Assembly (NCBI GenBank): GCA_000091205.1
Contig: AP006486.2
DNA from: Cyanidioschyzon merolae
Taxonomy: Eukaryota
Reading direction: 5' to 3' (one strand)
DNA length: 64,000 nt
Position 1 is the stretch's first letter. The number at the start of each line of letters is the position of its first letter. Below the pieces are notes generated by a model. That model searched no databases, was not told the DNA's origin, and saw only the letters and a program-made list of their open reading frames with translations. Shown piece by piece: positions 4,658-64,000 of the stretch. Made by a program: the position numbers and the translations under genes.

Positions 4658-5518
4658 TTGAGCGATATGCCTCGTGAAATACCGTTTTCAAGTGGTCAGG
4701 ATGCCGACGCTATTGTACGCGCTGTCTCGTAGACGATGCTGGTGTGCACGTCGTCATCCTGCGGGCGATACTGACCGGGATGTCGTCGTCTCTGAGGCAG
4801 TTCGCTGCTGCCCAAGTCCGCAAGCGTCGAAGCAATGAGCGTCGGCTCCGGTATCGAATGTCTGCGCAGAACAGAACGGGAAGCAACGGCGAGCTACGCT
4901 AGAATTGGTTGTTTAAAGGACACGTGGTAGCATACGGGTTCCTGTTCGAGGGCATCGCACTCGAGCAGCTGTTCAGACGCGTCTGAAGACGAATTTCGCG
5001 TCTCTAAGTCTTACCATTCTTGGTGTAGTTTGTGTACGGGACGCGCTCTTGCATGTCGTCGAATTACCCTTGGTGCAGTTTTCCCGAGGCACAAGCACAA
5101 CCCCGAGCTGGACGCTCCTTACGTTTCTCGAACACCGTCGTCGCCCGCAGTGTTCAGATAAAGCTGCCTCAACAGTTGAAGGGAACAGGGCCCCGCTTCC
5201 CCTGAATCTGCGCTGAAAACTCGTTTTCGCTCATCAATACGATAAAGCTGTTCGGGAGCGAGTGAATCCTCTTCCCGTCGATCCCGTCTCGCAGTCTTCG
5301 TCGCTTGGATCGACGCTCGACCGACGATACCACTAGCCGAACAAGCGAGACCAGCGAGTTACTGTAACACAGCAGCTGCATTGATATCTAGATCGAGTTT
5401 CGCGTCTTGCGCGTGAGTATTCTACACGGAGATATACAAACGTCAGCTGATGGACGTTATCGAAGAATGACCAATGTCGCACCAGAGTAGAAAGAGGCCA
5501 TATACATAATACGGTCGT

Positions 5519-5750
5519 AAAGTTCGTCTCTTTTACAGATATCAATCATCGTTGCCTTTGCTGGCTTTTATCGGGAGGGGTTCCTCTTCCGCTCAGTTGT
5601 CTCTGGCCCTGAATACGTCTATCTTCCGTATATACTAAAGTTCGTCTCTTTTACAGAGATCAATCATCGTTGCCTTTGCCGGCTTTTATCGGGACGGGTG
5701 CCTCTTCGTCTCAGTTGTCTCTGGCTCTGAATACGTTTATCTCTCCTGGC
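5519..5750. repeat. Tandem repeat, about 120-bp unit, 2 copies
   Basis: Unit aagttcgtctcttttacaga(t/g)atcaatcatcgttgcctttgc..ctcagttgtctctggc.ctgaatacgt is repeated at 5519 and 5638 with a few substitutions. Confidence 0.8.
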
Positions 5751-7088
5751 TCTCCAGCTCCGTTGACCGCAATTCAAGGATTTTGATGGCAGCGTTGACG
5801 TTTCGATTTTCGATTGCACGGCATTCGGATGCTGTCGACAAATTCCATGCATAAGCGGAAGTTGCGAGCAACGCATCGATTTTCATGCTCAGCTTCTTCG
5901 TAGACAGCATCGATGCGTCCACTACATCTGTGAAACTTGCCTGTGGCCGGGTGATCGCATATGTGCACCACATCTCGTCCTCTGAACGCTGCCCTGCGGC
6001 ACCTCCAGGCACGCTTCATCGCTTGGTGTACACCCACGAGGTGTACAGTGGGATCCCCTCGATGTCGTGTTCCGTTTCCACGTCAAGTGCCATCCCTGAC
6101 AATCATGGGGTCGTGTGGGCGATGCCCATGGCGAGAGCGCTCTCTCCCGCATACGCATGCCCACACTGTTTTATTCGATAGAGGAGCTGTGGAACGCGAT
6201 CTTACCGATGATGACAAAAGCACCGGACGCATAATCCAGGCTGGAAAGCTAGTGCAGACATTGCGACCAGTCCATGCTCCCATCGTGTAAAACGGTGAAA
6301 AACTCTCCCCGGAAAAATCGCCGCGTTCGCTCATACCCGAGTCCATGATCCTTTCCGATGCAGACAGTAAAAATGTCGGCAGCCTCAGCGAGCATACCCC
6401 ATTGAACATATCATACCGCTGTAGACTGCCGTTGTATCGATAGCCATAAACAGAAGATGAGTTGTCTTACGGATGAAATCGATTATTTCAACGTGACAAG
6501 TTCAGTGAACTTTCGACACGAGCAAGTGAACAAGTCGTCCATACACGATCATGAGTTTTGTTTTCTCCTTCATCTAGCAGCGCAAAATCACAACGCGCAT
6601 CATTTGCCCTGCAACAGCAAGATCGAAAAATTCGAATCATGCGTAACTTGAGCATGCTAGACCGAAGGACAGGAAAACAGGGTATACTTGTACATATGGA
6701 AAGTCTAACGACACCAGTGATATTAAGAATCCTATTCGAAACCGTTGCCCATTATCTTGGTTCTGGTAACGTACCGTATTCCAGCGGCTAAGGATCCAAG
6801 CAGCAACCCCAAATCGACTACCGAGAAACCCACAACTTTCTATGCACCCGTATGCACTAATCACTGGAATTCGAATGTTGATGCTTTCCACTCTGATACA
6901 TCTTCCGCAAAAATCGCAATGCTGGAGCAGAGCGAGCAGCGCGGATTCCCCTGGTAATCCGCGACTAGTCCAGGTCGCTGTGGATCGAGAGCATGCGTCC
7001 CGCGCCATGCCACGATTTTCGCCTGCGATCATGGGGCACATTCACGTCATTACGTCGCTCGTGACGATTCCTGTTGAACCAGTGCCCT

Positions 7089-19298: not shown

Positions 19299-22179
19299 TG
19301 TGAACCGAGACTTTTGGTGGCGAGTCGTGAAACCCGCGTTGGGTGCCTTACGTTTCTAGCCGGCGCTTTCCCTTGCATAGCAAAGCCGAATCTGTCTCGA
19401 TGCTCGGCGGAATGCCAGAAATACCCGCTATCTCCCAGCGGATCTACGGGCAGTGGCCGGCGGAAAGTCAGAGGTAGCGCGCGTTGTTTTGGCTGCGTTC
19501 CCTGGTCTACGTCGACGTTCTGCGGGCCAGAAAAAAAGCTTGCGGTGCCGGCACATGACGCCCACATACAACGACAACCCCTCAACCAGAGTCTGGTCAA
19601 TTTCTGGGTTCATTGGCCTTAGACCCGTATCAGATTAAAAAATTGGACACTGAAATACGCGCTCGGTCCGTGACATGAGCTTTGTTCCCGAACTTTACTG
19701 ATTTGCATGGCGTCGACATTCGAACTGCACCAATAAAGCATTATGGATTCATAGGTGTAAGATTCTCGGGCGTGATTTTGGAGTGCATCCCTCGACGCGT
19801 TGCCACTGGCTCTCGCTATGTCACCGAAAGCAGGATGATTTGCGACGCCCTCGAATACGGCTTCGTTCAATAACCAATATCATTGTCCAATGCATGCGTT
19901 CAAGACTCCGCGTGTCTCGATTTCATGTGTATAGCGTGCCCAAATCGCGCGTCCTTCATGACGTGGAACTTTCTGTTTCAAGGCAACGCGTGAGCGCAGT
20001 ACTTTGCGCGACTGCATTGACGGGAGCAACCATTCGATATCGTCCGTAGAGAGCTCGTCGAGAGGTGCGCGCTGAACGTGTATTGAACTCTTCATGCCAA
20101 ATCATCAATGCCCTTTGAACGACAATTCTGTCTCTATGTCGATTGACGAAAGCAATATTCGAGTGCAGCGTGACACCTCTTCTGGGATACGCATCCAGAC
20201 TCCACCGTCGGTTCTGTCTTCATGGGAATCTTCTTGGACGCGGTCTCCAGTGATCGCGGGGATCGATACCAGTGGGGTGCGCGATACCGCTTTGCACAAA
20301 GGGAGCGTGGGCCGGTCGACACCTGTCGATTTGCGATCCAACCTGAATTTTGCTTCCGGTACCTGTTTCTTCATGGATGACATTGCGTTCCGCATATCCT
20401 CTATCGAATGGAGCAGTGTGCGAGCGCGTGTGCTTCATAAAGCGTGCTGGCTGAGGTGATCGCCCAGAAAAGGCCCGTGATTCCAGTATACGACGCCGGG
20501 CGCCGAGTCTGATGACAGCATCGAGGGCATCCCTCTGTGCTCGTCGAGGTCGTGGACCGAGCGCTGAATCAAATGGTCACGCGCCAGAGGACGGCATTTG
20601 GAGGTCAACGAGGCATCGGGGTCGACGTATGGGAGACCCCGAAACTGCTCAGGTGTCATTGGTACGACGGCTGCACCGGGGCTGTTTACAAACAAGATCA
20701 ACATGACAAGTAAAATGCACATCGCAACTTTTACCTACGTACGAAATACGTTGACAACAGCAGCAAGCGGCGAACTCGAGACATTCATACAGCTATCAAC
20801 ATCCTTCGGCTGCTGATGACGGAGGTGCAGGGACAGGAGCGACTCACGTACTCGATCCCGGAGAAGAGCGAGAGCAGAAGCGGAAGCAGTCTCAGAAAAA
20901 GCGCGCACATTCTGGTGAGGATCACAGTGGCAAGGGACCCAGACTTTGGAGAGCAAGCCCAAGTTAGCGAGCAGGGCCATTCTATTTTATTTCGATAGAG
21001 ATGTGTGGAAGGCATCTTGTCCGTACTGGCTGCCTGTCGGACGAGCGCATCTCGTGGAGGCGTGCTGCCTGTCCGTTACCCTGCTGCCGCTACCGATGGA
21101 TAGATGGGTGCTTGGATTCCCATCCAGGCATGCACGTGAGAGGGGAAATGCTTGGCGGCGGTTTCCGCTGCTTTGCAGGTCAACAGACAGTCCTCACATG
21201 TGCCGTGCATACCTCATACGCCGCCGACCAGGTAGAGGCGCTCGCACAGGACGCGCTCAAAGTACGCTTGCGTTTGGCTCCGGGTTTCACCACATGGGAT
21301 ATGGCCGGCAGCTTCGCGCACTGCGACTGCCCCGGCGCCTCATCGAACTCGCTGGGATCCAAAAAGAATCCCTTGGCACCCAGGGAATGGATGATGGGAA
21401 GCGATTCCGCGTCAACACGCTCATCCATGGCTGAAGCACTCGTCGCTTCGACCAGGACTGGGCGCCTCCTTTAGAGTTCTCCTTCACGCAGATCATGATC
21501 TGCCAAGCAACTTTCAAAAGCGTCCAGTGATACGCCTACAGCTGGGCGAAGGAAACCTTTCAGGTCCTGTGTATGCCTCTCGCTTCTAGTTACATTTCCC
21601 GAGTGACGATTCCCAGCGTCGGAATCGCCATGCGCCCCCGGTATCGCCACATGTACGTGCATAGCATCTGGCAACGCAAGCCATGCGTCAGTGCGGCGCC
21701 TAGCCCGAACCCGCGAGTCCTGTGTGTGTGTGGGTGTGTTTGTGCGCGCGCACCGGAACGCCTACCAGCCGCCCCGCTGGATGTCCGTGCGTCATGCCGC
21801 TAACTATATGCATCTACATAAGGTTGCATGCTTCGACGCTGCACGATAAAACGGAGTGCTTGGAATGCATTTTTAGAAACAGAGTGCCTGCGCAGCGATC
21901 GGATTCGAGGCGCTCGGCGTGCTCTGGGTGGAAAGCAAATCATCGACATGTATCGAGCGTTTACGTTGTGTTGATGACCGGGACTTTGGTGCCCCCAGCG
22001 CTGGTTGGAGCGATCCCCCCGCTCTTCTTTAGCGCCTGTTCCAGGACTGTTGCCAAAAATGTCGACGGCGCACCGCATTTCTACACCGTCCGTTAAGATG
22101 GTGGTGGTTGCCGCAGTGCAGCGCTCGGGTACTGCTTTTTTGCGCTACGCAGGCGTGCTAGCCTGGTATCCCAGAAGTA

Positions 22180-22778
22180 AAACAAAAACGTTCAACGACC
22201 ATGGAGGGTAAATACGTATACCCACGCGCATGCGCCTCTGCGCCGTTCGTGACCGGTCCCCTGGCATCTATTTCGGTTTCTAACAGTACACTTCGAGCAG
22301 CAGAGGTTGCTAGATGAAGTTAGATCGCCTCAGCTCCCCTGGTCTCTCGTATTCAGCATCCCACATCGTCTGCTGCTGGGTGACGGCGCTGGTGTCTCAG
22401 TTGACGAGCTCCCTGCGTGCATTGAGGCTGGTGGAGCTCCCCAGCACAAGGAGGCCTCTAATTCGAGCCCTCTGTGGCACTGCAGTAAGGTCATCGTCCC
22501 GTAGCGCAAACGCCCTCTCTCGCCTATTTCCCCCTTCTTCTTCGTCGACACTTGCGCTTTTCCCTCGATGGGTGGAGAAAACAGAATTTTTCGTTTTCTT
22601 TCCCGGCAGCCGGTGATGACAGCCTTCGAGGATCCCCGACGCCCATCTTTGCTCCTTTCCCTTGGATTCTTACTTTTCTTCAAATGAGCGCACGTCGAAC
22701 GCATCCGCTCTAAACTGCGAAAACGAATTTGACGACACGCATCTGGGAGTCGGAGCACGATTGATGAGAAAGACTATA
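22180..22778 (-). mobile_element. MITE-like, internally deleted derivative of the Fanzor/TnpB-like element family (copy M1)
   Basis: Collinear, roughly 70-80% similar over its whole length to the element at 63392-63975. Shares the 5' terminal block (..tcttcaaatga.cgcac...gaacgc.tc...gaaagactat) with the Fanzor copies at 36.2 kb and 37.15 kb. Retains a degenerate stretch homologous to the region encoding the RuvC-III motif. Homology with M2 ends at both boundaries. Confidence 0.55.
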
Positions 22779-22807
22779 AGCACTGAACGATGACTCGCTG
22801 CGTCAGC

Positions 22808-33689: not shown

Positions 33690-33846
33690 TCAAGCGCACG
33701 GAGGTCTTTTCGCGGTTGCAGCTCCCAAGCAAGCTCTGAAAATATGGTTCCGTTCAAAAAAAGATTCCCTGATACTTTACAAGTTTGTATATGTGTTAGA
33801 AAGCTGCAAGCGAAGATACCGGTCTCGAGCAACACGATGTTCGAAA

Positions 33847-34000
33847 GTCGAACGTCGCCACCGGTGTACAGTAGTGGCGACCGGCGCCCTAGACAAGAAG
33901 TCGCTAACGGATGTGCAGACATCTCCCAGCCGCTTTGGACCGGCCACCTTCTACTGGTTCCAACTTTTTCTCGTATAGTTCCACTTTGAGAGGTTGTCCG
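33847..34000 (-). ncRNA. Candidate omega-RNA (reRNA) scaffold region at the 3' end of Fanzor copy 1. This is a prediction and its extent is unknown.
   Basis: In TnpB/Fanzor systems the guide RNA scaffold overlaps the 3' end of the ORF and ends at the element's right end. Here a perfect 8-bp stem (gtcgccac/gtggcgac, 33853-33880) lies about 10 bp inside the point where copy 1 and copy 2 stop being homologous. Confidence 0.25.
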
Positions 34001-36124
34001 ATAAAGTTCTCTCTTGTCGGCTCTGGAGGTCTTTTCTCTAGCACCGTACATTTCCTTATATTGATGGCGGCATTAAAGTCTCGGTTCACAAACTCCATCC
34101 GTTTCTTCCATCATTGCTTGTTCTAACCAGCGCAGGTAGTCCACGAACTTTCGTCCTCCTTTCCATTTGCTCCTCCTTCAGCGGTCCGCACTTTGCTATA
34201 TGTTCAGGGGTCCGTTGGCACTTTTCTTTCTCGACCATCTGAAGTGTACAACCCAGTTCATGGTGTGTATAGGACGTTCGAAACTCATCTATCGGTATCG
34301 TAACGAAGCGGCTTGTGCACTCCTTGTACGTTCTTGTTGACGGAGCTGTTGTACTCCCTTTCTTCGACGCCCAGCGTCCTGCCCCATACGCTACCAGGAG
34401 CCTCTGACTTCCATCCTCCTTCAAGGCGTTCAACCGGTTGAAAAAATTCGCAACCGCCCGCTGTTTTCCACAATACAAATTCATTCGCAAACGAGCCCAC
34501 CGGGGCTTGGTATACTCCGCCCACAGTGCATCCCCATGGGCAACACGAACATCCATGAATTTCCGAAAAGGTTCAAAGTCCGCTCCTCGGCTCGTCGCCT
34601 CGCTCAAAGCTTCCAGGTGATCCTTCATTTCTGCATTCCACGGACCAATTTTCTTTCTTGCATTCACTATACCGGATTCTCGATAGTATCTCGCTCTGGC
34701 GAGCCTCAAAAGACGCATGTCTGTCTGGCGTAAGTTGCAATCAGTACCATCATCCGCACGCTTGGGAGCAGCGATGGTTATGATATTTGTGTTTCTAGGA
34801 TCCCCGCCAACGACAAAGTCGTTATCCTGCACCTCCTGCATCGTAGGACCCGCCTCCTTCTCATCTTCATCCTTCGTCACGGGTGCAGCCGAGGACGGAA
34901 CTGAACAATCCGCGTTCAAGCGCCGATTGTGTGCACACAGGGCTACCCCATCGGTTTTGATCATCCCAGTAAATACCTTTTGCTTGCTCACTTTGAGACA
35001 TTTGAAATCGAAGATGTTCTTCCAGTACGTCTTCCGGTTTTCACCGGAGAACTCCTCCCTGCTAACATCGAACTCCGGACAGATCTCCTTCATGATGCCG
35101 TAAAGGATTCTGGAGTCGATAGTCACAAAATGTGACTTGATCTTGCCCAACGGAACCACGTCGAAGCGCTTCCCTACTAGGAAAGCCTTCCGTCTCTCCC
35201 ACTCTTCATTTTTCCCGTTCAGCTTCATCTCTGCCTTGCGTTCGAGTTCTCGGTCCAGAAACACGAAATAGCACAGAATGAGGCGATCGTATCTTTCCTG
35301 ATCTTTGCTCAACTCTGATACCTTGTCTGTTGGATTCGGTAGCCCCAGTACCGCACGATGCTCTTGTATAACCGCACGGATCGCAGAAGCTTCATTCGTG
35401 GTCTCGTTTGACGCCTTCTTGTCGACAAATTCTACCTCATCTTCACGCTTGCGATCTTTCATGATGCCATTGATAATCGTCCATTTTCCATTGCGAGAGA
35501 TGCCCGGGTAGAGTGCAAACACGGTGCGTATCATGAAACGTTCGAGGTTCCCTGTCTCATGGTTCTTCAGATTCGTGAGGTACTTCATCGCCCCATAGCT
35601 GTAGATATCTCGGTCACCCTTGTTTCGAGTATCTTTGAAGCTGTAAAAGGGATGTCTTTCGTGTAGGGCATGTACTTGCTCATTTTTCCCTCCGTGTTTG
35701 CCCTGAACCAAGCATCAGGTGACGAACGAAGGTCTTGTCGAAGATCTCGTCTGGAATCTCGACTGTTTTGATGGCCGCCACGTCGCGATACATCTCCCTC
35801 GCCAGATGCATCAGTCCTGACAACGCCTTGACGATACTCTTAGAGTACGAGTCGAAAAGGTTGTGGATGGCCTCTTGAAACATTTGCTTGTAGAGATCCT
35901 TGATGTAATTAAGAAGACAGGCTTTCACCACCATCTCGTTGTACAGTCGTCTTTCTTGCCGCCTTCGACGTGGGGCCTTCCCTCTTTCGGTTCTTCTTCT
36001 CCTCCTTTTCTTCTGGACACGGCACTGTTTTTTGTTTTTGTTTTCCAGCAGCCGGCGACCCTGGGCCTCCAGGATCGTCGACTCAGTTTTTCATAACTTT
36101 CCATTTTTTTGGTTTTTTTGAAAA
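33904..36124 (-). pseudogene. Fanzor/TnpB-like nuclease pseudogene: RuvC-I, TS-x-x-C zinc-finger region and RuvC-III are present, and at least 3 frameshifts are needed to join the ORF pieces.
   Basis: ORF pieces 35925-36305 (K/R/E-rich NLS-like N-terminus), 35680-35934, 34086-35711 (541 aa) and 33904-34098. RuvC-I-like VVGGDPRNTNIITIA; IDEFRTSYTHHELGC plus CQRTPEHIAKC (TS-Cys zinc-finger position); and MEFVNRDFNAAINIRK, the canonical TnpB/Fanzor RuvC-III motif. Comparison with copy 2 locates 1-nt indels in an A5 run near 35700 and at ggaagaaacgg near 34100. Confidence 0.7.
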
Positions 36125-37245
36125 AAGCACTCTGTGAACGCTTCTCCAATATACTACGAAAAAAACACTTGACTAGACTTGTTTGAGTTTTGAAACATAA
36201 ATGAACTGAAAAACTATACTTTGCTACGTCCTGAACGGAAATCCGACTTTTCCAGCTGAATAACACGCTACTGATCAAAATCGCGTTTCCCTTCAACAAC
36301 GGCACCGTGCGCGTCGTGTCTCATGCCTGCCAGATCTCCCAGGTGCGCTCACTATGCGTCGATTCGTTTTCCGATGTCAACACCTTGCCATAGAACATAG
36401 AATCCAGATTGCGGGATGGATACTGAAATAAATGAGAGCGCTCATTATTCTTCGCTCCACCTTCAAGTTCCATTACTTATACTTCCTCTGGGATCTACTG
36501 GTCGTTTCGTATATTCTATCGTGCACCGAGTGCCTGCCTCGCTGCACCTGCAATAGCGCCCGTATCGTTGGAGCAGCTGCATCACCGAGACAGAAGAGCT
36601 TTGCCATACCACTGAGGGCGTCGGATCGAGGAATACTTCTCCTCACACGGACTCGGAGTGCATAATCACTCTGGTAACCAGCATGCTGTGCTTAAAGGCC
36701 TACTGCCTGTGGCAGCGCGGAGCGATGTACTAGGAGCCACTGCGACCAGCGCAACGCCCAGAAGCAGCGTACCCGCTCCTAGTCCCAGGATAAACTGCGT
36801 TGCGGACGGACTGCTCAGATCGGACCAAAGCACCTGCCACTGGGAGGAGCATGAAGCACGAGGCTAGCTGTCTCGTACGACTCATGGGACCTTCCACCAA
36901 GAAGGTAAACCTTCGGCAATATGGAAAGCTTTCCCCTTTTAACGTTTCTCGTAGAGGGGTAACGAAATTGTTATCTCATTACTGCGTGGTCGCTCGTTGC
37001 TGTTCTTTTTCCTAGAGCGCAGTCTGTTAGCACACCTGGGAGATCTGGCGGGCGTGAGACACGACTTGCAACTCGCAGTTGAAGCGAAACACGATCCTGA
37101 TCATTTGTAGACTTGTTACTGTGACTGGCAAGTTGTATTTGCATGAAAGTCGTAGCAAAGTATAGTCTTTCAGTTCTATCATGTCTCAACCACCAAGTAA
37201 CTGTATTCAAGTGATATTTCGCGGTTTATAGCGGAAGCGTTAATC

Positions 37246-39469
37246 GTGAACTCGTTTGCAAAAATAAATAAAGTTATGGAAATGAAAGTAGAGGATCCTG
37301 GAGGGCCTGTGCCGCCGCGTGCCGAGAAAAATACGGAAAACAGTGCCGTCCATGAGGAACAGGTGAAGACGGTGAAGCAAAAGGGGGCGAACCGACACCA
37401 GAACCTGCACGAAAGACGACAGTACGACGAATTGGTAGTGAAAGCCTGTCTTCTTGAACGTAACGCGGATCCCGTGAAGCAAAAGTTCTGAGATGCCATC
37501 AGAAACCCTACTGCATCTCACTCCTTGAGTGTTTGTAACGCATCTTCAGCACCAATTCATCTGACGAAGGAGATGTACCATGACGTGACGGACATCAAAA
37601 AAGTCGAGGCTCCGGAAGAATTGTCCAACGTGACCTTCCTTCGCCACGAGATGCTTGACACATGGGAAACAACGAGGAGAAATGAGCGAGTGCATGCACT
37701 CTACGAAAATTATGCAGAGTGCCGCTCCAACGGCACTCGATATAGGGGTGACTCAAATGTTCACAATTACGTGGCGATGAAGTACCTCTCGAATCTGAAG
37801 AACAAAACGACCATGAACCTGAAACGCTTCATGATACGCTCCATCTTTGCGCTCTACCCTGGGCTGTCTCGAAAAAAAAGGATATGGGCCATCATGATTG
37901 GCATCACGAACGATCGTCGGGATGCACAGGAGATCGAATTCGTGAACAAGAGGACATCACACAGGAGAAGGAAGACGCTTCTTTGATCCGTGCGGCGATT
38001 CATAAGCACCGCGTGGTTTTGGGGCTTGTCAACCCAACAGAAAAGGTTTCAGATATGAAAAAAGATGTTTTTCCCGCATCCTGCGCTAGTTCGTGTTCCT
38101 GAAGCGTGAACTCGGACGCAAGGCCGAAAAGGAGCTGAATGGGGGAAAAATGGAGAGTTGTTGGAACGGAAAGCTTTCGTACTGGGGGAACGCTTCAATG
38201 TCGTTTCGTTTTGCAACATCTAGTCAATGTTTGTTACATTCGACTTCAGAGTCCTTCATGGCATCATGAGGGAGATCAGTCCAGGGTTCGATGTGAGGAA
38301 GATACGGTTCATCGGCGAGAAACCGGGAGACATACCAGAAGAACATCTTCGATTTGAGACATCTCAAAACGAGCAAGAAAAAGTATTAACGGAGATGATC
38401 GAAACCGATGGAGTAGCCGTATTCGTACACTATAGTCGCTTGAAGGCAGATCGTCCTGTTCCGTCTTCGCTATCGCACTTGGCGAAACGTGAAGAAAACA
38501 AGGATGCGGATCCTGCGACACAGAAAGTGCAGGATAACGACTTTGTCGTTGGCGCGAACCCCGGAAACACGAATATCGTAACCATCGCTGTGCCCAGGCG
38601 TGCGGAAGATGGTACTGACGGCAACTTACGCCAGAAAGACATGTGTCTTTTGAGGCTCGCCAGAGCGAGATACTATCGAGAATCCGGTATAGTGAATGCA
38701 AGAAAGAAAATTGGTACGTGGAATGCAGAAATGAAGGATCACCTGGAAGCTTTGAGCGAGGCGACGAGCCGAGGAGCGGACTTTGAACCTTTTCGGAAAT
38801 TCATGGATGTTCGTGTTGCCCATGGGGATGCACTGTGGGCGGAGTATACCAAGCCCCGGTAGGCTCGTTTGCGAATGAATTTGTATTGTGGAAAACAGCG
38901 GGCGGTTGCGAATTTTTTCAATCGGTTGAACGCCTTGAAGGAGAATGAAAGTCAAAGGCTGGTAGTGGCATACTGAGCAGGGCGATGGAAGACCCGAAAA
39001 GGGTGTACGCCAGCTCCAATGACAAGAGCGTACAAGGAGTGCACGACGTTTCGTTACAATGCCTGTCGATGAGTTTCGAACATCGTATGCACACCATGAA
39101 CTGGGATGTACACTTCAGAAGGTCGAGATGGAAAAGTGCTAGCGGAGCCCTGAACATATAGCAAAGTGCGGACCGCTGACGGAGGAGCAAATAGAAAGGA
39201 GAGCGAAAGTTCGTGGACTACCTGCGCTGGTTAGAACAAGCAATGATGGCAAGAAACGGATGGAGTTTGTGAACCGAGACTTTAATGCCGCCATCAATAT
39301 AAGGAAATATACCGTGCTGGAGACGAGACCTCCAGAGCCGACAAGAGAGAACTTTATTGGACAACCTCTCAAAGTGGTACTATACGAGAAGAAGTTGGAA
39401 GCAGTAGTGGGTGGCCGGTCCAAAAAGACTGCGAGGCGCCTGCACATCAGTTGGCGTCTTCTTGTCTAG
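37246..39469 (+). pseudogene. Fanzor/TnpB-like nuclease pseudogene (copy 2), broken by several frameshifts and in-frame stops. The RuvC-I Asp is replaced (GANPGN).
   Basis: ORF pieces 37246-37491 (MEMKVEDPGGP.., NLS-like), 37525-37986, 37884-38102, 38227-38862 (..DNDFVVGANPGNTNIVTIA..) and 39260-39469 (MEFVNRDFNAAINIRKYTVLETRPPEPT..). There is a TAG where copy 1 has TGG at about 38862. Confidence 0.7.
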
Positions 39470-39522
39470 GGCGCCGGTCCCCGTTACTGTACACCGGTGG
39501 CGACGTTCGACTTTAGAACAGC
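39370..39522 (+). ncRNA. Candidate omega-RNA scaffold region at the 3' end of Fanzor copy 2 (prediction)
   Basis: Position homologous to the copy-1 3' terminus. The stem seen in copy 1 carries 3 mismatches here (gtccccgt versus gtggcgac), consistent with decay. Confidence 0.2.
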
Positions 39523-39563
39523 GTTGATGGCGCCGCTCTGAAAATTCGCGTACCTCCGCGAGG

Positions 39564-49914: not shown

Positions 49915-50329
49915 CGTCGAATAACGAGCAAGGAATGCGCTGCGGCTGGAGCGAAGCGCCGGTGGGCGTCCACCGGCGCAGCTCAGGGGGAACGATCGTT
50001 GAGGCAGGCGCTTTCGTGGCGTACGCTTTATGGGCCTTTACCTCGAGTGTATTTTATCCTCAGGTGTGGGTAACCAATTGCTTATCCATGGTGCATAGCG
50101 GATGCGTTAGAAGTGCGTTCATTGGAAGGAAGAAAGGCTGTCATCGCCGGATGCGATAAAAAATACCAAAAAAATGTCTCTTGTCGCCGACTGCCGAGCG
50201 ACGGCGATAAAGAAAAACAAGAGGGCATCTAGGCGAGGAAAGGCGTTCGCCCGGCCTGGCGATGGCCAGACTCTAGGGGTACAGGGGGGTGAGGGTGAGG
50301 GGGGTGTTCGACTCTGAGCAATCCCTGAA

Positions 50330-50625
50330 TTGGTGCGTTCAACCAGCGGCACTGCATATAAGGAGTTCATCAACGAAGACTTTTCACACCACGATCGATA
50401 CCAAGCGACGGGTGTGGTGCTGGAGACGAGAAACCCGAGGAGCTGACGCGATCCAGCCCAGTCGGACAGCCGCTCACGGTCGACTTGTACAACGACAAGT
50501 TGGAATCAGTACCAAGGGGCCGGTCAAAAAAAGTCGCGAAGCACCTGCACGTCGGTCTCTCTACATACACGCTACGGTCGGAATGCACTTTGGTGCTGCA
50601 TCGGTGGCGGCATTCGTACCGCATA
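50330..50625 (+). mobile_element. Solo 3'-terminal fragment of a Fanzor-like element (degenerate RuvC-III coding remnant plus 3' end)
   Basis: ttcatcaacgaagacttttcacaccacgatcgataccaag..gtgctggagacgagaaacccgaggagctgac..cacctgcacgtc..catcggtggcggcattcg is collinear with the copy-2 sequence ttgtgaaccgagactttaatgccgccatcaatataagg..gtgctggagacgagacctccagagccgac..gcctgcacatc..caccggtggcgacgttcg. The motif is degraded to FINEDFSHHDRYQ. Confidence 0.45.
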
Positions 50626-55769: not shown

Positions 55770-57817
55770 AATGAATAGTAGCGCCTACTCCTAAACATTA
55801 ATAAACGTAAAACAGAACACCGACTGTTCCAGTGGTCAACAGCGAGGCATCCCGTTGGGTTGCGTATGGCCGGTTTCGGAAGAGTGCTAGCAAGAACGCC
55901 TTGAAAGAATGGAATGATATACCCATATGAGAACAAACCTAACTAAATCCGTACAATGGCGTGTCCATTGAAATCCGGGGCGCTTCCGACGATCACCAGC
56001 ACCAGCCTTGTGGGATTTTTCTGCGACTGCTTTCTTTACTCCTTCTCTCTTTGGCTTTACATATGCCGATCATCCCTTTTTCTCCAGCTTCGTTGTCAAC
56101 AGTCGAAGGATGTTGGCAGCGCCTCTCATGTCTGGACCTCGATGCTTCTGGCTGTTCTTGACGCATTTCATGCACGAGCGGAAGTTGCGATCTCTGTTTC
56201 ACTTGCTATTGTCATCTTCTTCGTAGACATTCAGGGTGCGCGGTTCACCACAGGACCAGTTCGGTATGATCAGGTCTTCTCATACAACCACTAAACCTCC
56301 TCCTATGAGAGCCGCTCTGTGCCGCGTGAGCACTTGCTTCCTTGATCAGCAGATGCCCTCGACGGGTTCAGAGCGCTCGTCTTGATTTCCTCGCATCCGA
56401 TTCCGCCCGCCGTTGCCGTATCCTGCAACCAATGGCCTCTTCTGGCTGGTCCCGTCGGCGAGTACGCTGTATGAAGCACACGCGCTCGCACACTGTTTCA
56501 TTCGACAGAGGATTTGCGGAAAGCGAAGTTCCCAATGACGGAACAAGTCCCGGAAGTCGAGTTAGGGCTGGAGAACGAGTCGAGAAATTTCGATCCGTAT
56601 TCGCTCCCTTTCTACAAAGCGATGCGCACGCTCCACTGGGAGCGACCCTTGCACGACTCAAGTCCGTGTCCAAGACCCATTTGCATGGAAGCAGATGAGA
56701 CAGAGGCTTCATGGGGTGTATCCCATTCGATTTGTCCTACTGCTTTGGAATGCAATTTCGTCGATGGCCGTAAAGAGCAGAGGATTTTTCTTTGGAACGA
56801 AATCTATTATTTGACGTGAAGAGTGCTTTCAACGTTCGGCATGCGCTTGCGAACAAGCCATCTGGAATCGACGTCAGGTTTGCTCCTCGTCGACACAGCA
56901 GCGAGAATTGCAGCACCCACGAGTTGTCTTGAAACAGAAGATTCGAAGACTTGAGGCATGCGTGAATCCCGCATGCTACACGTGCTGACAGCAGAAGCGT
57001 TGCTGCGTGAACCCATGAATTGGATATGGATATTGGATCTTTCACAAATCGTTTTTCGGTTGCGTCGCGAATCACCTCGATGACGGTGACGGAACGAATT
57101 GCAGTGGCAAAGCGTCGAAGAATGCGCTTCGAAACGACAACCGAGAACCTTAACACTACGCAAGGATCAATAAGCCCTGATCGCTGCACTTGGAATGTCG
57201 AGGTTGAACATCGAAACAAAAGTTCGGAGAAAAATCAAAAGGCAAGAACAGAGCAAGCATATCAGGCTTTCTTTTCAATCATGCATCAGTGGAGTCTGGG
57301 TACAACGCAGTCTCCTGCGCTAAAACGCTACCTGGTGAGTCACCCGCGAGTCTCGTGCAAAGCTCTGGTGCGCAGTATCGTGTGCAAAGAGGGTGTTCGG
57401 TAGCTCTTAGCGTGCGTACGGCATCGAGCGTGGGAAGAGCTGCCAGTGCTTCAAAAAATGGATATACAGCTGCACCCGTAACGCGCATTCGGTTCCGTTT
57501 ACCGTACTGGACGGAAAGCGTTCGTAAGCGGTTGCTGCGGGCCGGTCAGAGATGCCTCCCGAGGTGCCTCTGCCCATATCATGTTGCTGCGTTCGAGCAG
57601 AGCAGGTTTCGGGCCTCGACACCGCATCGTTCCAATGTTGGGCAGTGCGAAAGGCATGCTGTTGTACGCAATCTGGATTTGCTTGCTCACTGATGATGCT
57701 GGTTAGCTTCGCTGACGCTGCGTCCCTACACGTAAACGTTCTCCATTCGATGGGAGCAAGTTCCCAGACTGCAGCCACCAGGGATCGACCGAGTATTATG
57801 CCAACGGCAGTATATGC

Positions 57818-58354
57818 TCAAGAGAGTGGCACTGCCCGCAAGCCAGTTGCACCGTCCACAACCTGTTCATGGATGAGATCCGTGAGCACGGCTCCGAGCC
57901 ACCAGCCGAACGCGCCGAGGGCCAGACTGCCGAAAAGGAGCTGGCTAAGGAGGAGGGCGTCTCGGTTCCCGGAACCCGTGTGCAACGGGGCAGTCGCCTG
58001 TTTCCTCAGAGACTGCGTACACTGCTCATACTCGAGTCGTGCGAGGAACGCTCGGAACCTTTGCCGCGCTTCATCGTCAGCGCTTGACGAAGTGTCATCC
58101 TGCGGCAACTGCCAGCGCACGAGCGTGCTCTGAACGAGTTCACGCACCGCATCCTGGGTGTATCCCGAACCGAGCGCGACGTCCAGCAGCTCTCTGTGCG
58201 ATATCCAGCACTTCTCGAAGGTCGCTGTGTCGTCAAGCACTGAACCAGGCCCGGAAATGACGTCGCGCTGGCTGCGCCCCTGAGTCGCTGCTCTCAGAAA
58301 GGCGCGAACTTTGGGGTCTGTGGCGTCGAGCCACGGCATAGAGCCGACCAGCAA
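57818..58354 (-). CDS. Hypothetical protein with a C-terminal hydrophobic segment (possible tail anchor)
   Basis: 178-codon ORF with LLLSQLLFGSLALGAFGWWLGAVLTDLI near the C-terminus. No family recognised. Confidence 0.25.
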   Translation of the reverse strand: MLVGSMPWLDATDPKVRAFLRAATQGRSQRDVISGPGSVLDDTATFEKCWISHRELLDVALGSGYTQDAVRELVQSTLVRWQLPQDDTSSSADDEARQRFRAFLARLEYEQCTQSLRKQATAPLHTGSGNRDALLLSQLLFGSLALGAFGWWLGAVLTDLIHEQVVDGATGLRAVPLS

Positions 58355-58811
58355 ACCTCTCCACGAACTGACGACGATTCGCTGCTCGTGTACTCCTGGC
58401 TCGCGCAGCCGGTGTCCGTGTCACGCTTCACAGGGCAGAAACAACGCAGTGTTCGTGTCCTACGGAACGGTAACGGTCAAGTCTGACGTCGCGTACGACA
58501 GCAGGCAGCGCGCAAGCTTGTGTGCTGAAGCAACACCACCGCTTAACGCACACTAGTTCGACTCGAGTGACACGCTCGAGTACGTCTCTTTGTTGTGTGT
58601 GCGTACGCATCGAGGTTTCGTGAACGTTTATAGTGCATGTTTGCAGCACCGACACTCACGGCACCCGCTCGACCGTAGCATCTAGCCAACTCGCTACGTT
58701 GCACCAGTGTCGTGCGTCACGGAACGCCACGTTGCGGAGCGCACCTGGACCCTAACGACGACTGTTGCCTGCTCATCACCGTTGCTTTATTGGAAGCACA
58801 CCAATAGTTTT

Positions 58812-59453
58812 ATGGGTGCAGCGGCAGCAGCGCCTCGTTGCCTTGTGCTTGCCGGCCCTTCGGGTGTCGGCAAGGGAACCGTGCTTGCGCGTCTCAGTCA
58901 AGTGCTCCCGGACGTCTTCGGCTTCTCCGTATCGCATACGACGCGGGCACCGCGTCCTGGTGAGTGCGACGGGCGCGAATATCACTTTGTCACGGAGGAG
59001 GAGTTTCAGCGAGCCCGCGCTGAAGGCCGCTTCCTCGAAACTGCATCCGTGCATGGTCAGTGGTACGGAACGAGCTGGGAGGCCATTGAACGTGTACGTC
59101 GCACTGGACGAATCTGCGTACTGGACATTGATGTGCAGGGCGTGCGCAGCATCCGAGCTGCAAAGCTTCCAGCGCTCGTCGTTTTCTTGCGACCGCCGAG
59201 CATGGCGGAGCTGGAGCGACGTCTCCGTGGTCGCGGGACGGAGGACGAGGCCAAAATCCAACGCCGCCTCGAGACTGCTGCCGAAGAGCTGCGGATAGCA
59301 CATGAAGAACCCTCGCTCTTCGATGCTATTATCGAGAACCAGGATCTCGAAGAGACCTGCGCACAGCTACGAAAACTGCTTGACGAGGACGTGCAGGCGC
59401 TTCGCGGTGTGCGCGAGGCTGGAGCAGCATCCGCTGCACAGCGAACGAGTTGA
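58812..59453 (+). CDS. GUK1: Guanylate kinase (GMP kinase). The track ORF begins at 58707; the Met at 58812 is the likely start.
   Basis: P-loop LAGPSGVGKGTV, FSVSHTTRAPRPGECDGREYHFV, FLETASVHGQWYGTS and VLDIDVQGV, with guanylate-kinase spacing. Confidence 0.8.
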   Translation: MGAAAAAPRCLVLAGPSGVGKGTVLARLSQVLPDVFGFSVSHTTRAPRPGECDGREYHFVTEEEFQRARAEGRFLETASVHGQWYGTSWEAIERVRRTGRICVLDIDVQGVRSIRAAKLPALVVFLRPPSMAELERRLRGRGTEDEAKIQRRLETAAEELRIAHEEPSLFDAIIENQDLEETCAQLRKLLDEDVQALRGVREAGAASAAQRTS

Positions 59454-60577
59454 AAGCATTAGTGTGTGCTATGCAGCTGGATCAGGTTTGAGCACTGAAC
59501 TGGAATCTGGAAAGGCACCGTTGGAGCTGGTGTTGGATCATGAGTTCGCGTGGATGGAGCGGTAAGCGCAGACGCGTCCGGCGGTACGACAATGGGCCTT
59601 TGCACCTCATTTTCTGGATGCGAGCAGGGATCCCCTGGACTGTCGATCGTGCAGTGGCATCAGAGAGCCTGCTGAGGCACTTGCTCTGGTCGCTTTGCTT
59701 TCATTTGTGCGCGCCAGGCCTATGCTATAGAGCTGGATGCACACGAACTCGTGCGTCATCGCGCAGGCTGATGACCTGAATCGACAGCGTGCTTATCGCT
59801 TCGCCTATCATCGCGGGAGCGCATGGAATGCCTCTGGTTCAGTGCTCGATGGACCATACGGAGGCGTTGCGCTCGCCACGAGTGATTGCTCGCTTTCCTG
59901 TTATGGTGGCAACAGGATACCATGCTCTCAAACGACTGCATTAAGTAAGGGTGCTTTTTGGTATACGTGGTGTGATCCGGGAGCTGCAGGGCGCTGCGAA
60001 CGCATGAGCGACAAGCGTTTGTGCTTTTTCATATAGGATAAGGACGTACCGCTCGAATGGAGATTGCCCGAATACATCGACAATCTGATACTGACAGTAC
60101 TTGTATTCGTCAAAGTCATTTATCTAACGAACGACCTGGCGTTTTGAATAGAGCTTGACGGAATGCATAAACGAGCTGACACCTTTGGCATTCCGTCTAT
60201 TCGACTTCCCTTTACGACGAATAACAACGCATCCTTCAAAAAGGGATTCCTCGAATGCGTAGACGAACTGATACCGTCCACCACTGCCAGATCCAATCTA
60301 ACGCATACGAACCTACACCACGACGCGGAAACGCTGATTTACGCTACAGAAAATGGCGGCCACACCTGCACCTTAACGCTGCACCAAACCAAGTCGCTTG
60401 GACAAACCCTATACCATAAGCGGATGAGGACGAGGCACCAGGCACTGACGGAATCAGAAGCTTCCGCATCCCCGAGCGCAGCGATACCCAGACTGGTCTG
60501 TTCACGGGCTCGCAAACAACACAGCCTGCTACTCGGACGTTACCCCATCGCTGGGCAACCCGCAGCACACCTGGCGT

Positions 60578-62002
60578 TCAGCGAATCGTGCCTCCTTGAA
60601 TGGTGGCGGCTCGACACGGTCCTTTATCCGTCGTAAACGGAATGTCACCGTAACGAGCCTCACAGGACGGATCCGTGCTCGTGCGGAAATGTTCCGCAAC
60701 TTTCTCGAATATTTTCTTTTTCGGATTCAGCTGCGCATCCGGCTGGTTATCGCGGTCTGCATCTGTACCGGGAAAGTAGACGCGGTCTCCGGGCTTGGCT
60801 CCAGGAGGCGGCTTGACGAGTTCCACTTGTGTCCCGTCGGCTGAGGTGGCGCAGAGCACCATCGCCTCGGAAACAATACCGCGCATTTTCACGGGTTTGA
60901 GGTTTGCCACCACGATACACGGCCCGAGTAGCTCTGCTGCATCGGGGATGTACTTGCGGAGGCCACTGCACACCGTAACGGGACCGCTGTCTCGACCAAT
61001 ATCGATTTCCTCGACATAGAGTGCGTCGGCATCGGGGTGCGGCTTTGCAGTGAGAATCTCCCCGACCCGAATATCGACGCGAGCAAGGTCGCTTCGGCCA
61101 TCCCCCGAAGCGTCTTTTGGCGTTTCAACTCGCGTCGTCTTTGCCGTTTTCGACGAGGCGACTGCACTTCCGGGCGCGGGCGCAGCTTCAACACCCGCCC
61201 TCGTCTCCTGGTCTTCCTGCTGCCCTGACTGAGACTCTGTTCCAGACCTTGCAGCTGTAGACGATAGTCCCGCGACACCAAACATCGGTGCTTGAGCTGT
61301 GGTTGATCGAAACCACGCTTTCGGAGGCAGCGGCACGAGTTCAACCCGGTCTGCGTGGCCGTACCGATGCAGGAGGTTTTGCATGAGGTCAAACCAGCGC
61401 CATACCTGTACGAGGTTGCTCCTCTGCGCAGCGTCAAGACCATCTTTTACCCAAGTTTCAAAAACTGGTGCAGTTGCTCGAGCTGCTGCCACGTCTAGAG
61501 CAGTCACCACCGGACCGCAGAGGAAAGTCTTTTCGCCCCGCGCAAGAACGTCTGGAAGCACCTTTCCAGCAAAAGTTTCCAACGACTCTCGCTGTAGCCG
61601 TTCCAGCATTCTCTCTATAAACTTCGTCCGCTCTGATTGCAGGGATCCTCCTCCCAGAAGTTCAGAGTGTGTGGGCAGCGCTTGCCGGCACGCTGTGACG
61701 AGTTCCGAAACGCTCTCGAACCGGTTCCGTGCAGTTGCTGCACGGCAAAGTGCGACCCACTCGGGGCAGAGGTTCGGGGACACTATCGTCATTACAGGCC
61801 AGCCTACGCTTTCTTTAATTCTTCGCCCAAAACCTGTCCCCAAACCCGAGAGGAACAGATCCCTCTCGATCAAGAAGAATTTTCGTGCGCTCATAGAGCT
61901 CTTCGCAGTGCATGCGTCGACGAGAGCCTGCGGGCATTTTCGCCAGCGAGTGGCGGGTCTTCTTTCAGGTTTTGTCTGTGCGCCGTCGCCGAGTTCAGAC
62001 AA
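60578..62002 (-). CDS. Arc1p/AIMP1(p43)-like aminoacyl-tRNA-synthetase cofactor: GST-C-like N-terminal domain, K/E/A-rich linker and C-terminal EMAP-II/Myf tRNA-binding domain. The start is probably an internal Met.
   Basis: The C-terminal VDIRVGEILTAKPHPDADALYVEEIDIGRDSGPVTVCSGLRKYIPDAAELLGPCIVVANLKPVKMRGIVSEAMVLCA..GAKPGDRVYF matches the EMAP-II tRNA-binding fold (LDLRVGKI..HPDADSLYVEKIDVGE..RTVVSGL..NLKPxKMRGVxSQGMLLCA). The upstream part is GST-C-like. Confidence 0.75.
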   Translation of the reverse strand: MSELGDGAQTKPERRPATRWRKCPQALVDACTAKSSMSARKFFLIERDLFLSGLGTGFGRRIKESVGWPVMTIVSPNLCPEWVALCRAATARNRFESVSELVTACRQALPTHSELLGGGSLQSERTKFIERMLERLQRESLETFAGKVLPDVLARGEKTFLCGPVVTALDVAAARATAPVFETWVKDGLDAAQRSNLVQVWRWFDLMQNLLHRYGHADRVELVPLPPKAWFRSTTAQAPMFGVAGLSSTAARSGTESQSGQQEDQETRAGVEAAPAPGSAVASSKTAKTTRVETPKDASGDGRSDLARVDIRVGEILTAKPHPDADALYVEEIDIGRDSGPVTVCSGLRKYIPDAAELLGPCIVVANLKPVKMRGIVSEAMVLCATSADGTQVELVKPPPGAKPGDRVYFPGTDADRDNQPDAQLNPKKKIFEKVAEHFRTSTDPSCEARYGDIPFTTDKGPCRAATIQGGTIR

Positions 62003-63391
62003 GCGTCAGACTCAAGTGGAACATAGGAATGCTTGCTTCGTTCGTCGTTCTCGACATCGACGAGCTTGGTTCAGATGTGCAGCATAGACATTCGAAATGC
62101 ACGGATAAGGGCTCACGGAAGCATGCGTCGTGTTGAGATTCGCCGACATCGTTTCTGAGTGGCTTCTTCGACGGTTTACCGCTGGAATTCGTTGCGTCTC
62201 CGAAACGAGGATGGCTCGCGACACCCTCGATGCAGGGCTCTTAAAGCGACCAATACGATCATCGGATTCGTTCGTACGCGGATCTATTCTTCCCCTTTTC
62301 TCAAGTGTGGCAAGCTGAAATCACGCCTTCCTCATGTTTTCGATCTTTTTGTGTTTCAAGGAAACAGGTGAACAAGGCAACTTGAACCAATGTATTGACT
62401 AGGAGCGTACTCGAACTCGTCCTTCGACGACTTGCCCACAAACTTATGCCGCATGCTCTCTGAAATCGTCAAGCGAAATCATTGACCCTGTACTTATGCA
62501 ATATCCTAGTCTCTTGGTGGCTATCGGCGATACAACATTCTACTCCAGCATGATATTTGTCACAGGGTACGCTCCCAGAGGTTCTAGTCTCTAGTGTTTG
62601 CAGGGAAGATGTTCTTGGACTCGAAGTCGAGTTCTCGCAGCAATCGCCTTCATTCGGGAGAGCGTCAGCGCTTCGCATGAACGCATCCTGGCCGGATCTA
62701 GGTTTCTTGACGTGATCTCAGGCCTGGATTTTTCCGTTCAACAGTTGTTACATCGCGGACAACATCGCGTTCCACAAATCCGGTTCTATTCGGAAACAGC
62801 TGCGAACAGAGCACGGTTCATCGTACAGACGCCATCTTATTCTCTGTGATTCAACCCGAGTTAGATCGTCACCAGGGTCTCGAATGGAAGCAAATCATTC
62901 GTTGGAGAATGCAACAGCGTGCGTTAGTTTGAGCAGCAGACCGAGGACTTGCCGAGGGATCGCTCCGAAGAAGCCCATGATCATCGTGGACAGTACCGGG
63001 CGCGAAATCACAAGCGAGCATCCATGTCATGCTCTGCATTCGTTAGGGGCATGTACAGAGCGAGGAAGCATGCTTCTTTTTCAAGCGCCACAAGGCGGTG
63101 CCTGGAACAGCAGGAGCTCCTTCGGTAGATCGTTCTGAACACCAAACCACACTCCCGTGTTACTGCAACGAAGGGCGCACCGAGGCTGTGTTCAAAGAAC
63201 ACGAAGATGGCAAGCAAAGCGTAGATTGCAACGCCCGCTCGTGTGTGAAGCGCCCCGACAACAGTCGATAGCAGCAAAATCGGGAACTGAACGCTGCCAT
63301 CAACATCCTTCAACTACTGACAACAGACGCAGAAGGACAGAGGAGACCAGTGCATTGAAAGCGAGAGATGTGTGTTGAATGAAACGAAGAA

Positions 63392-63975
63392 GGCGCTGCG
63401 ATCACAGAGGGCATACATAAACACCCACTCACAGACGCCTCCGAGCCCTTTTCGACGGGCCGCCTGCTATCGGCTACAGTTTTTATCGCAGCGCACTTCG
63501 TGTTGAGCGGCTGCCCGGTAAGCTTAGATGGCGGCAGCTCTGCGAGTCTCTTGTCGTCAGCACCGCACACATCATCTGGTATTGGTGGCAGCATTGAAAT
63601 CTGGGTTCTCGAGCTCCATGCGTTTATTGCCGCTGAATGAACTCGCCAGCGCAAGGATTCCTCTAATTTGTACCCTCTGTGGAAATACAGTCTCACCATC
63701 GTCCCGTCGGGCAAACACCTCTTCTCGCATATACCCCATCGTCTTCGTCACTTGCGTTTCTTCGCTCGATTGTCGGCGAGAAGAAGATTTTTTCGTTTTG
63801 TTTTCGGGCACCCGGCGATGATGGCCCTCCAGGATCCGCGACTTTCCGGTCCATACCTTCCCATTAGATTTTTATTTCTTCAAATGAACGCACTTTGAAC
63901 GCTTCTCCAATAAACCGCGAAAGCGCATTTGATGACACGGAAGTGAGCGTGCAATGCAATTAAGGTGAAAGACTA
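63392..63975 (-). mobile_element. MITE-like, internally deleted derivative of the Fanzor/TnpB-like family (copy M2); it may extend past the window end
   Basis: Collinear with M1 (22180-22778). Its 5' block is ..tcttcaaatgaacgcactttgaacgcttctccaataaaccgcg..gaaagactat. It retains a short ORF ending MELENPDFNAATNTR, a decayed version of MEFVNRDFNAAINIRK, and its antisense frame matches the copy-2 antisense frame (LVLVAALKSGFSSSMRLLP versus LILMAALKSRFTNSIRFLP). Confidence 0.55.
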
Positions 63976-64000
63976 TGCCAGCGCGAGCATATGCTAGACC

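Follow-up and report, generated by a model that had tools for sequence, protein, structure and literature searches.

The short element M2, at the right-hand edge of a 64,000-nucleotide stretch of Cyanidioschyzon merolae DNA (the window), is likely an old, inactive copy of a short, nonautonomous Fanzor1-derived transposon family that was presumably mobilized in trans, with a DDE transposase as the likeliest enzyme. Five proteins encoded in the window are identical to annotated proteins of C. merolae 10D, including BAM79137.1 (CMD051C), BAM79142.1 (fumarate hydratase), and BAM79154.1 (CMD074C), which places the window on chromosome 4. M2 is a derivative and not a Fanzor gene: it has no nuclease-encoding open reading frame (ORF) of its own, and only amino acids 1 to 21 and ~645 to 726 of the protein are left in it. 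The family arose once, from a Fanzor1-carrying element, by a single internal deletion that removed roughly codons 50 to 630 (about 1.7 kb). What it left are the 5′ leader and the 3′ terminal region, with the first ~20 to 50 and the last ~85 codons between them. Judging from the distribution of the copies, the deletion product would then have been copied to many unrelated sites, with a transposase presumably supplied in trans. An origin as a retro-copy or from a spliced transcript was considered and dropped, as there is no poly-A tail and both ends are shared with DNA-element relatives.

To define the extent of M2, we combined nhmmer searches, multi-copy alignments, and a flank test, which together assign it to positions 63372 to 63977 on the minus strand (~606 bp, with an uncertainty of ±10 nt at the 3′ boundary). 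The earlier note had described M2 as a second copy, on the same strand, of another short element in the window, M1 (22166 to 22779, minus strand). This proved correct: when positions 62801 to 64000 were compared with the window by BLASTN, 63423 to 63976 aligned with 22220 to 22777 on the same strand at 70.0% identity over 566 nt (E = 6e-59). The region also had shorter matches at 36028 to 36161, 37217 to 37340, and 50101 to 50476. Against a profile of four short copies (M1 to M4), 63977 to 63372 corresponds to profile positions 4 to 623 (nhmmer, E = 3e-185). In the multi-copy alignments, the 5′ boundary is sharp at 63977 and common to all family members; the sequence gaaagactat, previously taken as the 5′ end, is indeed present at 63966 to 63975. 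The 3′ end had been placed at 63392 and needs correction by ~16 to 20 nt outward, since the family consensus (...CGTGAAACGTTTTTCGTTTYACTGA) stops near 63376 and the nhmmer envelope stops at 63372. A few short-family copies have ~10 extra bases in common beyond the consensus 3′ end. Outside M2 and adjoining its 3′ end is an unrelated dispersed repeat of ~230 bp (63137 to 63372, plus strand), with further window copies at 56092 to 56241 and 5718 to 5810 (both minus strand) and at least 15 more copies in related loci at 66 to 74% identity. Rfam and tRNA scans of the window found nothing.

The suggestion that the sequence be extended beyond position 64000 could be followed with a metagenome contig, L003 (JGI contig Ga0078972_1000896), which we found through a 438-amino-acid protein encoded in the window (60578 to 61894). 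This contig is 99.5% identical to the window from 57819 to 64000 and runs 7.9 kb past base 64000. With its flank included, homology between M1 and M2 stops at 63976 and at about 63377, that is, at both ends of M2. When 4.1 kb surrounding M2 was compared by sensitive BLASTN with 4.6 kb surrounding M1, the element itself gave the 566-nt match (63976 to 63423 and 22777 to 22220), and the remaining matches were an inverted second copy (M4) and noncollinear short hits. Because the homology ends with the element, M1 and M2 are not portions of a larger duplicated block. A segmental duplication containing both would account for their mutual similarity and nothing more, and with no collinear homology beyond 63977 or below ~63370, and with further copies elsewhere in unrelated flanks, we regard it as so improbable as to be nearly negligible. 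As a separate observation, two metagenome contigs otherwise more than 99% identical to the window, L084 and L003, stop matching it abruptly at 61087 and 57819, respectively; one of these breakpoints lies inside a tRNA-binding-domain gene, and they represent either structural differences between strains or chimeric assemblies.

We found at least eight short copies at unrelated loci: three in the window, one just past its end, and four elsewhere. The third window copy, M3 (50026 to 50594), is on the plus strand, opposite to M2, and is present in three metagenome orthologues as well. The fourth copy, M4, is partial and inverted relative to M2; it lies ~1.5 kb past the window end (L003:5765-6419, equivalent to window positions ~65476 to 66130), and a DDE_3 relic on the opposite strand either overlaps its 3′ part or stands in its place. 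An nhmmer search of about 1 Mb of related loci returned further short copies at L015:4507-5077, L027:14374-14964, L031:10819-11421, and L040:13245-13765, all of which begin at the 5′ end with (T)TATAGTCTTTC... and sit in unrelated flanks. M1 to M4 and these further copies align end to end, middle segment included. Their shared junction and differing flanks indicate that one deletion product spread. If M1, M2, and M3 were instead full-length Fanzor elements that had each decayed in place, with no amplification of a short form, the deletions would have been independent and should differ from copy to copy, whereas the short copies and their 1.5-kb relatives (described below) share both the junction and a middle segment of ~120 nt. 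In favor of decay in place, frameshifts have also made pseudogenes of the window's full-length copies; even so, we consider this explanation very unlikely. In the metagenome loci, 3′ halves of the short family also occur as palindromic pairs with an overlapping center (L018:4990-5701, L019, and L071:13465-14177), one pair consisting of a minus-strand copy at 5373 to 4990 and a plus-strand copy at 5358 to 5701.

Read from its 5′ end, M2 consists of parts of a Fanzor element. The leader (63855 to 63977, minus strand, as are all parts of M2) begins CATAGTCTTTCACC and is homologous to the full-length Fanzor leader: by BLASTN, 63788 to 63922 matches 36028 to 36161 in full-length copy 1 (73% identity, E = 5e-16), and a match is also found at 37217 to 37340 in full-length copy 2. 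It is followed by a remnant of Fanzor codons 1 to 21 (MDRKVADPGGPSSPGARKQNE), detected by TBLASTN with the reconstructed protein at 63854 to 63792 with 57% identity, in which the start codon could be located. The middle segment (63680 to 63791), which is common to all short copies and has no DNA-level match in full-length elements, is probably diverged N-terminal coding sequence together with the deletion junction. Next comes a remnant of amino acids ~645 to 726 (63418 to 63679) with one stop and one frameshift. Here, 63679 to 63569 corresponds to amino acids 645 to 682 (53% identity) and, after the frameshift, 63567 to 63418 corresponds to amino acids 682 to 726, with a joint TBLASTN E value of 9e-6. 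Within the first of these alignments, NPDFNAATNTR in M2 is paired with NRDFNAAINIRK of the reconstructed protein; a stop codon follows NTR, and a motif scan places the RuvC-III remnant PDFNAA at 63587 to 63604. The short ORF with motif remains to which the earlier note drew attention is present as quoted (79 amino acids, 63572 to 63811, with a GTG start). The 3′ terminal region (63372 to 63500) has its homologue in full-length elements, in the 5′ half of their structured 3′ region. M1 and M3 retain the same C-terminal Fanzor stretch as M2 by TBLASTN. The remnants of both protein ends bear out the claim that M2 and the full-length copies share a protein-coding ancestor. The antisense-frame match to copy 2 that had been offered for this claim (...APGDDGPPGSATFRSI in M2 and ...ARGGTGPPGSSTFISI in copy 2) is genuine but trivial, since it is simply the conserved N-terminal DPGGP segment read in reverse.

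The identification of this ancestor as a Fanzor also held. Two full-length Fanzor1 elements lie head to head in the window: copy 1 (33834 to 36352, minus strand), which has at least three frameshifts and lacks a long 5′ extension, and copy 2 (36373 to 39525, plus strand), an element of ~3.15 kb with several stops and frameshifts. They are 78.6% identical over 2.5 kb, and both are pseudogenes. Three-frame translation of the two gave a protein of ~729 amino acids, broken by frameshifts and stops, with the motifs GDPxN, DEFRTS, and NRDFNAAINIRK seen in both copies and RuvC-like D...E...RD motifs in its C-terminal half. In a large protein collection, the reconstructed protein had 44 homologues, nearly all from JGI metagenomes, some of which carry Pfam DUF8286. 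The single 729-amino-acid sequence had no relevant match in PDB or Pfam, and a family profile was needed. With a 12-sequence profile (alignment A3), in which the catalytic residues D431 (GDPxN), E603 (DEFRTS), and D672 (NRDFNAA) are nearly invariant, the sole PDB hit was 8GKH, the Fanzor1 of Spizellomyces punctatus (SpuFz1; E = 1e-7), and the host and family fit the published CMe-1A. The C. merolae-type Fanzor proteins had no Pfam match, including to the TNB domain or the OrfB_Zn_ribbon zinc finger; in three distant homologues, the Cas12f1-like TNB domain (PF07282) fell just below the cutoff (25 bits versus 26.3 in P0042 and P0043).

We compared the short family with full-length elements using nhmmer. 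Full-length elements match the M profile only at positions 4 to 192 and 316 to 570, which lie about 2 kb apart in them, whereas short copies match it continuously, the intervening ~120 nt being common to all of them. Taken with the two protein remnants, these split matches indicate that M2 lacks roughly codons 50 to 630. The opposite direction, in which the short element would be the ancestral noncoding transposon and the full-length form would have captured a Fanzor gene, has a precedent: according to Bao and Jurka (Mob DNA 4:12, 2013; PMC3627910), other transposons have frequently "captured" Fanzor1 genes. However, both ends of the Fanzor coding sequence, the RuvC-III motif included, survive as in-frame remnants in the short copies, and TBLASTN E values go down to 2e-20 for the 1.5-kb relatives and to 9e-6 for M2. 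A deletion product should look like this and a precapture vehicle should not, and we find this direction barely credible. Under the deletion model that we favor, the parent was probably not a CMe-1A-type copy such as copy 1 or copy 2. On the full-length elements of the window, the 5′ end of short copies maps not to the left end but ~790 nt (or ~147 nt) inside it, which indicates that the true parent subfamily is represented by neither of the two. One metagenome Fanzor copy, in L039, seems to have the M-type 5′ end as its own start; for the 3′ part of the M copies, the closest match is a divergent Fanzor subfamily (L040/L078).

Across 80 related metagenome loci, full-length elements fall into two classes, a "long class" that includes copy 2 and a "short class" that includes copy 1. 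Upstream of the point at which short copies start, ~790 nt are common to the long class (36373 to 37160 in copy 2, its 5′ extension) and only ~147 nt to the short class; the right end, ...CGTTCGACTTTCGAACGGCGTT or, as a variant, ...CGTTTTTCTTTTGAAAGACGTTT, is the same in both classes. In the window, copy 1 breaks off at 36352, ~147 nt upstream of the M-type 5′ end, right next to position 36373, where copy 2 has its left end. L061, L014, and L030 show the same arrangement, with a left-end fragment placed in inverted orientation immediately before a short-class element. This layout suggests preferred insertion or recombination at that site.

Evidence on how the family moved comes from elements of 1.5 kb that were found in metagenome contigs of near-identical strains and not in the window. 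These relatives agree with the short family in their ends and in the Fanzor deletion: profile positions 1 to 85 are followed by about 930 bp of extra sequence and then by positions 86 to 615, they are ~70% identical to one another over about 1.45 kb, and their Fanzor remnants give TBLASTN E values down to 2e-20. Single copies match DDE_3 weakly in the extra segment. A consensus of seven copies, with two stops replaced, contains a 277-amino-acid ORF with a helix-turn-helix region and DET...DNV...NPIE motifs, which matches DDE_3 (PF13358) with an E value of 2.9e-23 (82.8 bits versus a cutoff of 28.6). By this profile match, the relic is that of an IS630/Tc1-mariner-type DDE_3 transposase. It follows the shared 5′ ~85 bp and precedes the Fanzor start, in the same orientation as Fanzor; its ORF begins ~20 nt after profile position 85, so that the shared 5′ ~85 nt looks like the 5′ end of a compact element coding for a transposase. 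DDE_3 relics occur in about 10 distinct loci (14 locus identifiers, some of which are the same locus in different samples), among them L028/L071, L034:2097-3618, L040/L066, L046/L049, L052, L067 (two copies), L082:15113-16422, and L053:20096-21400, and just past the window end at L003:5311-5958 (window equivalent, ~65937 to 66584). All of these copies are pseudogenes, with no intact transposase or autonomous composite in the about 1 Mb of related loci, and M2 itself has no transposase sequence.

Because the relic is carried by relatives with the same ends, a DDE transposase, with Fanzor as its passenger gene, would be the likeliest mobilizer. We hold this with moderate confidence for two reasons. 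Transposases of the Tc1/mariner type normally need terminal inverted repeats (TIRs) and a TA duplication, and neither was found here. In addition, the deletions are distributed in conflict with one another: full-length and short elements both lack the transposase segment, whereas the 1.5-kb and short elements share the Fanzor deletion, so either one of the events recurred or elements recombined. More broadly, the findings suggest that the Fanzor1 lineage descends from a Tc1/mariner/IS630-type transposon with Fanzor as passenger.

We examined the termini of the short copies for the hallmarks of a DNA transposon. M1, M2, and M3 have no terminal inverted pair beyond 10- to 12-mers at chance level, and when the M-type 5′ end was compared with the full-length right end, the top-scoring inverted 11-mer reached 7.19, against 7.38 in shuffles. 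Two candidates were rejected: an 11-nt TIR (ACAGTCTTTCA, with TGAAAGACGT at the right end of some full-length copies) failed the shuffle test, and a perfect 10-bp inverted repeat in M2 (63393 to 63402 and 63485 to 63494) is not in other copies and is near the chance expectation. The flanks of 8 to 16 copies, which are ~30% diverged and have a 3′ boundary defined to within ±~10 nt, showed no common target duplication, and no TA duplication was found for the M lineage. The M-type 5′ end and 3′ part also occur in the 1.5-kb relatives with the DDE_3 relic. The description of M2 as "MITE-like" thus stands in part. Like a miniature inverted-repeat element, M2 is small (~606 bp), noncoding, and multicopy (at least eight short copies at unrelated loci), has lost the middle of a coding element, and was presumably moved in trans; it differs in having recognizable coding remnants and no TIRs or consistent target-site duplication (TSD) among the copies compared. 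As neither was found, the term is only loosely apt, and M2 is better described as a miniature internal-deletion derivative that was amplified and then decayed.

The short copies are strongly decayed. Mean pairwise identity among eight of them is 0.50 to 0.76, with little variation along the length and the lowest values in the 3′ part; the copies are ~30 to 35% diverged, and M2 is ~30% diverged from its siblings. M2 is also present in the related strain represented by L003, where it is 99.5% conserved, and its presence in a strain that is 0.5% diverged indicates that it is old and fixed. Given this divergence, the stops and frameshift in its coding remnants, and the lack of a detectable RNA-structure signal, M2 is most likely an inert relic that does nothing now.

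The 3′ region of full-length elements differs in that it is structured. It contains a long-range stem of 11 to 13 bp (CAGTAGTAGGTGG/CTCGCCACTACTG), internal hairpins, and a terminal hairpin, and 81.7% of alignment cells are paired, compared with 37 to 61% in slid controls; covariation was not above that in shuffles. The region covers the 3′ ~150 nt and overlaps the end of the ORF (39330 to 39525 in copy 2; 44 elements in alignment A4). Two of the hairpins are internal; the terminal one occurs either as CGTTCGA/TCGAACG or as CGTTTTTC/GAAAGACG, versions that compensate each other. RNAalifold predicted essentially no structure from the full 44-sequence 3′ alignment, and the long stem and hairpins from a trimmed set. 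The region is a candidate guide RNA scaffold for Fanzor or a candidate transposon-end signal.

This structure raises the possibility that the short elements are or were guide-only hitchhikers, which would keep the 3′ scaffold end while Fanzor encoded by full-length elements cut empty sites and homing restored the short copy. In bacterial TnpB systems, which are related, the guide RNA derives from this position at the 3′ end of the element, and the retained 3′ part of the short copies is homologous to the structured region. However, only the 5′ half of that region remains in M copies; the terminal hairpin and the 3′ arm of the long stem are missing from them. Their 3′ part is conserved no better than the rest and, if anything, less (0.50 to 0.58 versus 0.63 to 0.76). 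No significant RNA fold was found in the 3′ part of M2 (fold z-scores of −1.17 for M2, +0.75 for M1, and −1.52 for a full-length control), and across 16 short or 1.5-kb copies RNAalifold gave a weak fold rich in G-U wobble pairs and no convincing covarying structure. Both full-length copies in the window are, moreover, pseudogenes. We therefore give guide-only homing a small chance; if true, it would be a eukaryotic parallel to nonautonomous TnpB-dependent elements.

Among known systems, TnpB-only and PATE-like relatives of IS200/IS605 have no TIRs or TSDs, carry a nuclease gene beside a structured 3′ end, and give rise to short derivatives that keep the ends. The elements described here resemble them in each of these respects, but they differ in their eukaryotic host, in having no TnpA-type transposase, and in the DDE_3 relic of their relatives; in addition, M2 does not keep the full 3′ structure. 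Deletion derivatives of DNA transposons are commonplace. As one more decayed copy, with the parent family CMe-1A published in 2013, M2 itself matters little. The ~600-bp family is nevertheless worth masking or annotating as Fanzor derived, and its short ORFs should not be called genes.

The full-length family of the window fits the published CMe-1A by description, in host, length, copy divergence, and a separable 5′ segment. According to Bao and Jurka (2013; PMC3627910), CMe-1A is one Fanzor1 family of C. merolae, with about 150 copies of ~3 kb that are ~80% identical to the consensus, no TIRs, and TSDs that were not determinable; its 5′ 635 bp form a separate repeat, TE-N2_CMe. The likeness extends to the Fanzor1 protein in the same host, the many diverged copies (about 75 to 83% identity here), the length (~3.15 kb for copy 2 versus a consensus of ~3 kb), the separable 5′ segment (635 bp in TE-N2_CMe versus an extension of ~790 nt here), and the lack of TIRs and recognizable TSDs. 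M2 differs in being not a CMe-1A copy but an internal-deletion derivative of ~600 bp, whose 5′ end lies inside CMe-1A-type elements and whose 3′ tail diverges after profile position ~570; we found no description of a short ~600-bp derivative in the passages of the paper that concern CMe-1A. In two Mariner elements also described in the paper, PGv-1 and PUl-1, Fanzor1 is accompanied by the element's own transposase. Both elements have Mariner TIRs and TA duplications, neither of which was found here, and all transposase copies here are pseudogenes. What the 1.5-kb relatives share with these two elements is the gene order and orientation, with the DDE_3 relic upstream of the Fanzor remnant. Since the CMe-1A-type Fanzor1 lineage is classified as "unknown" in that paper, the DDE_3 relics may allow this "unknown class" to be assigned.
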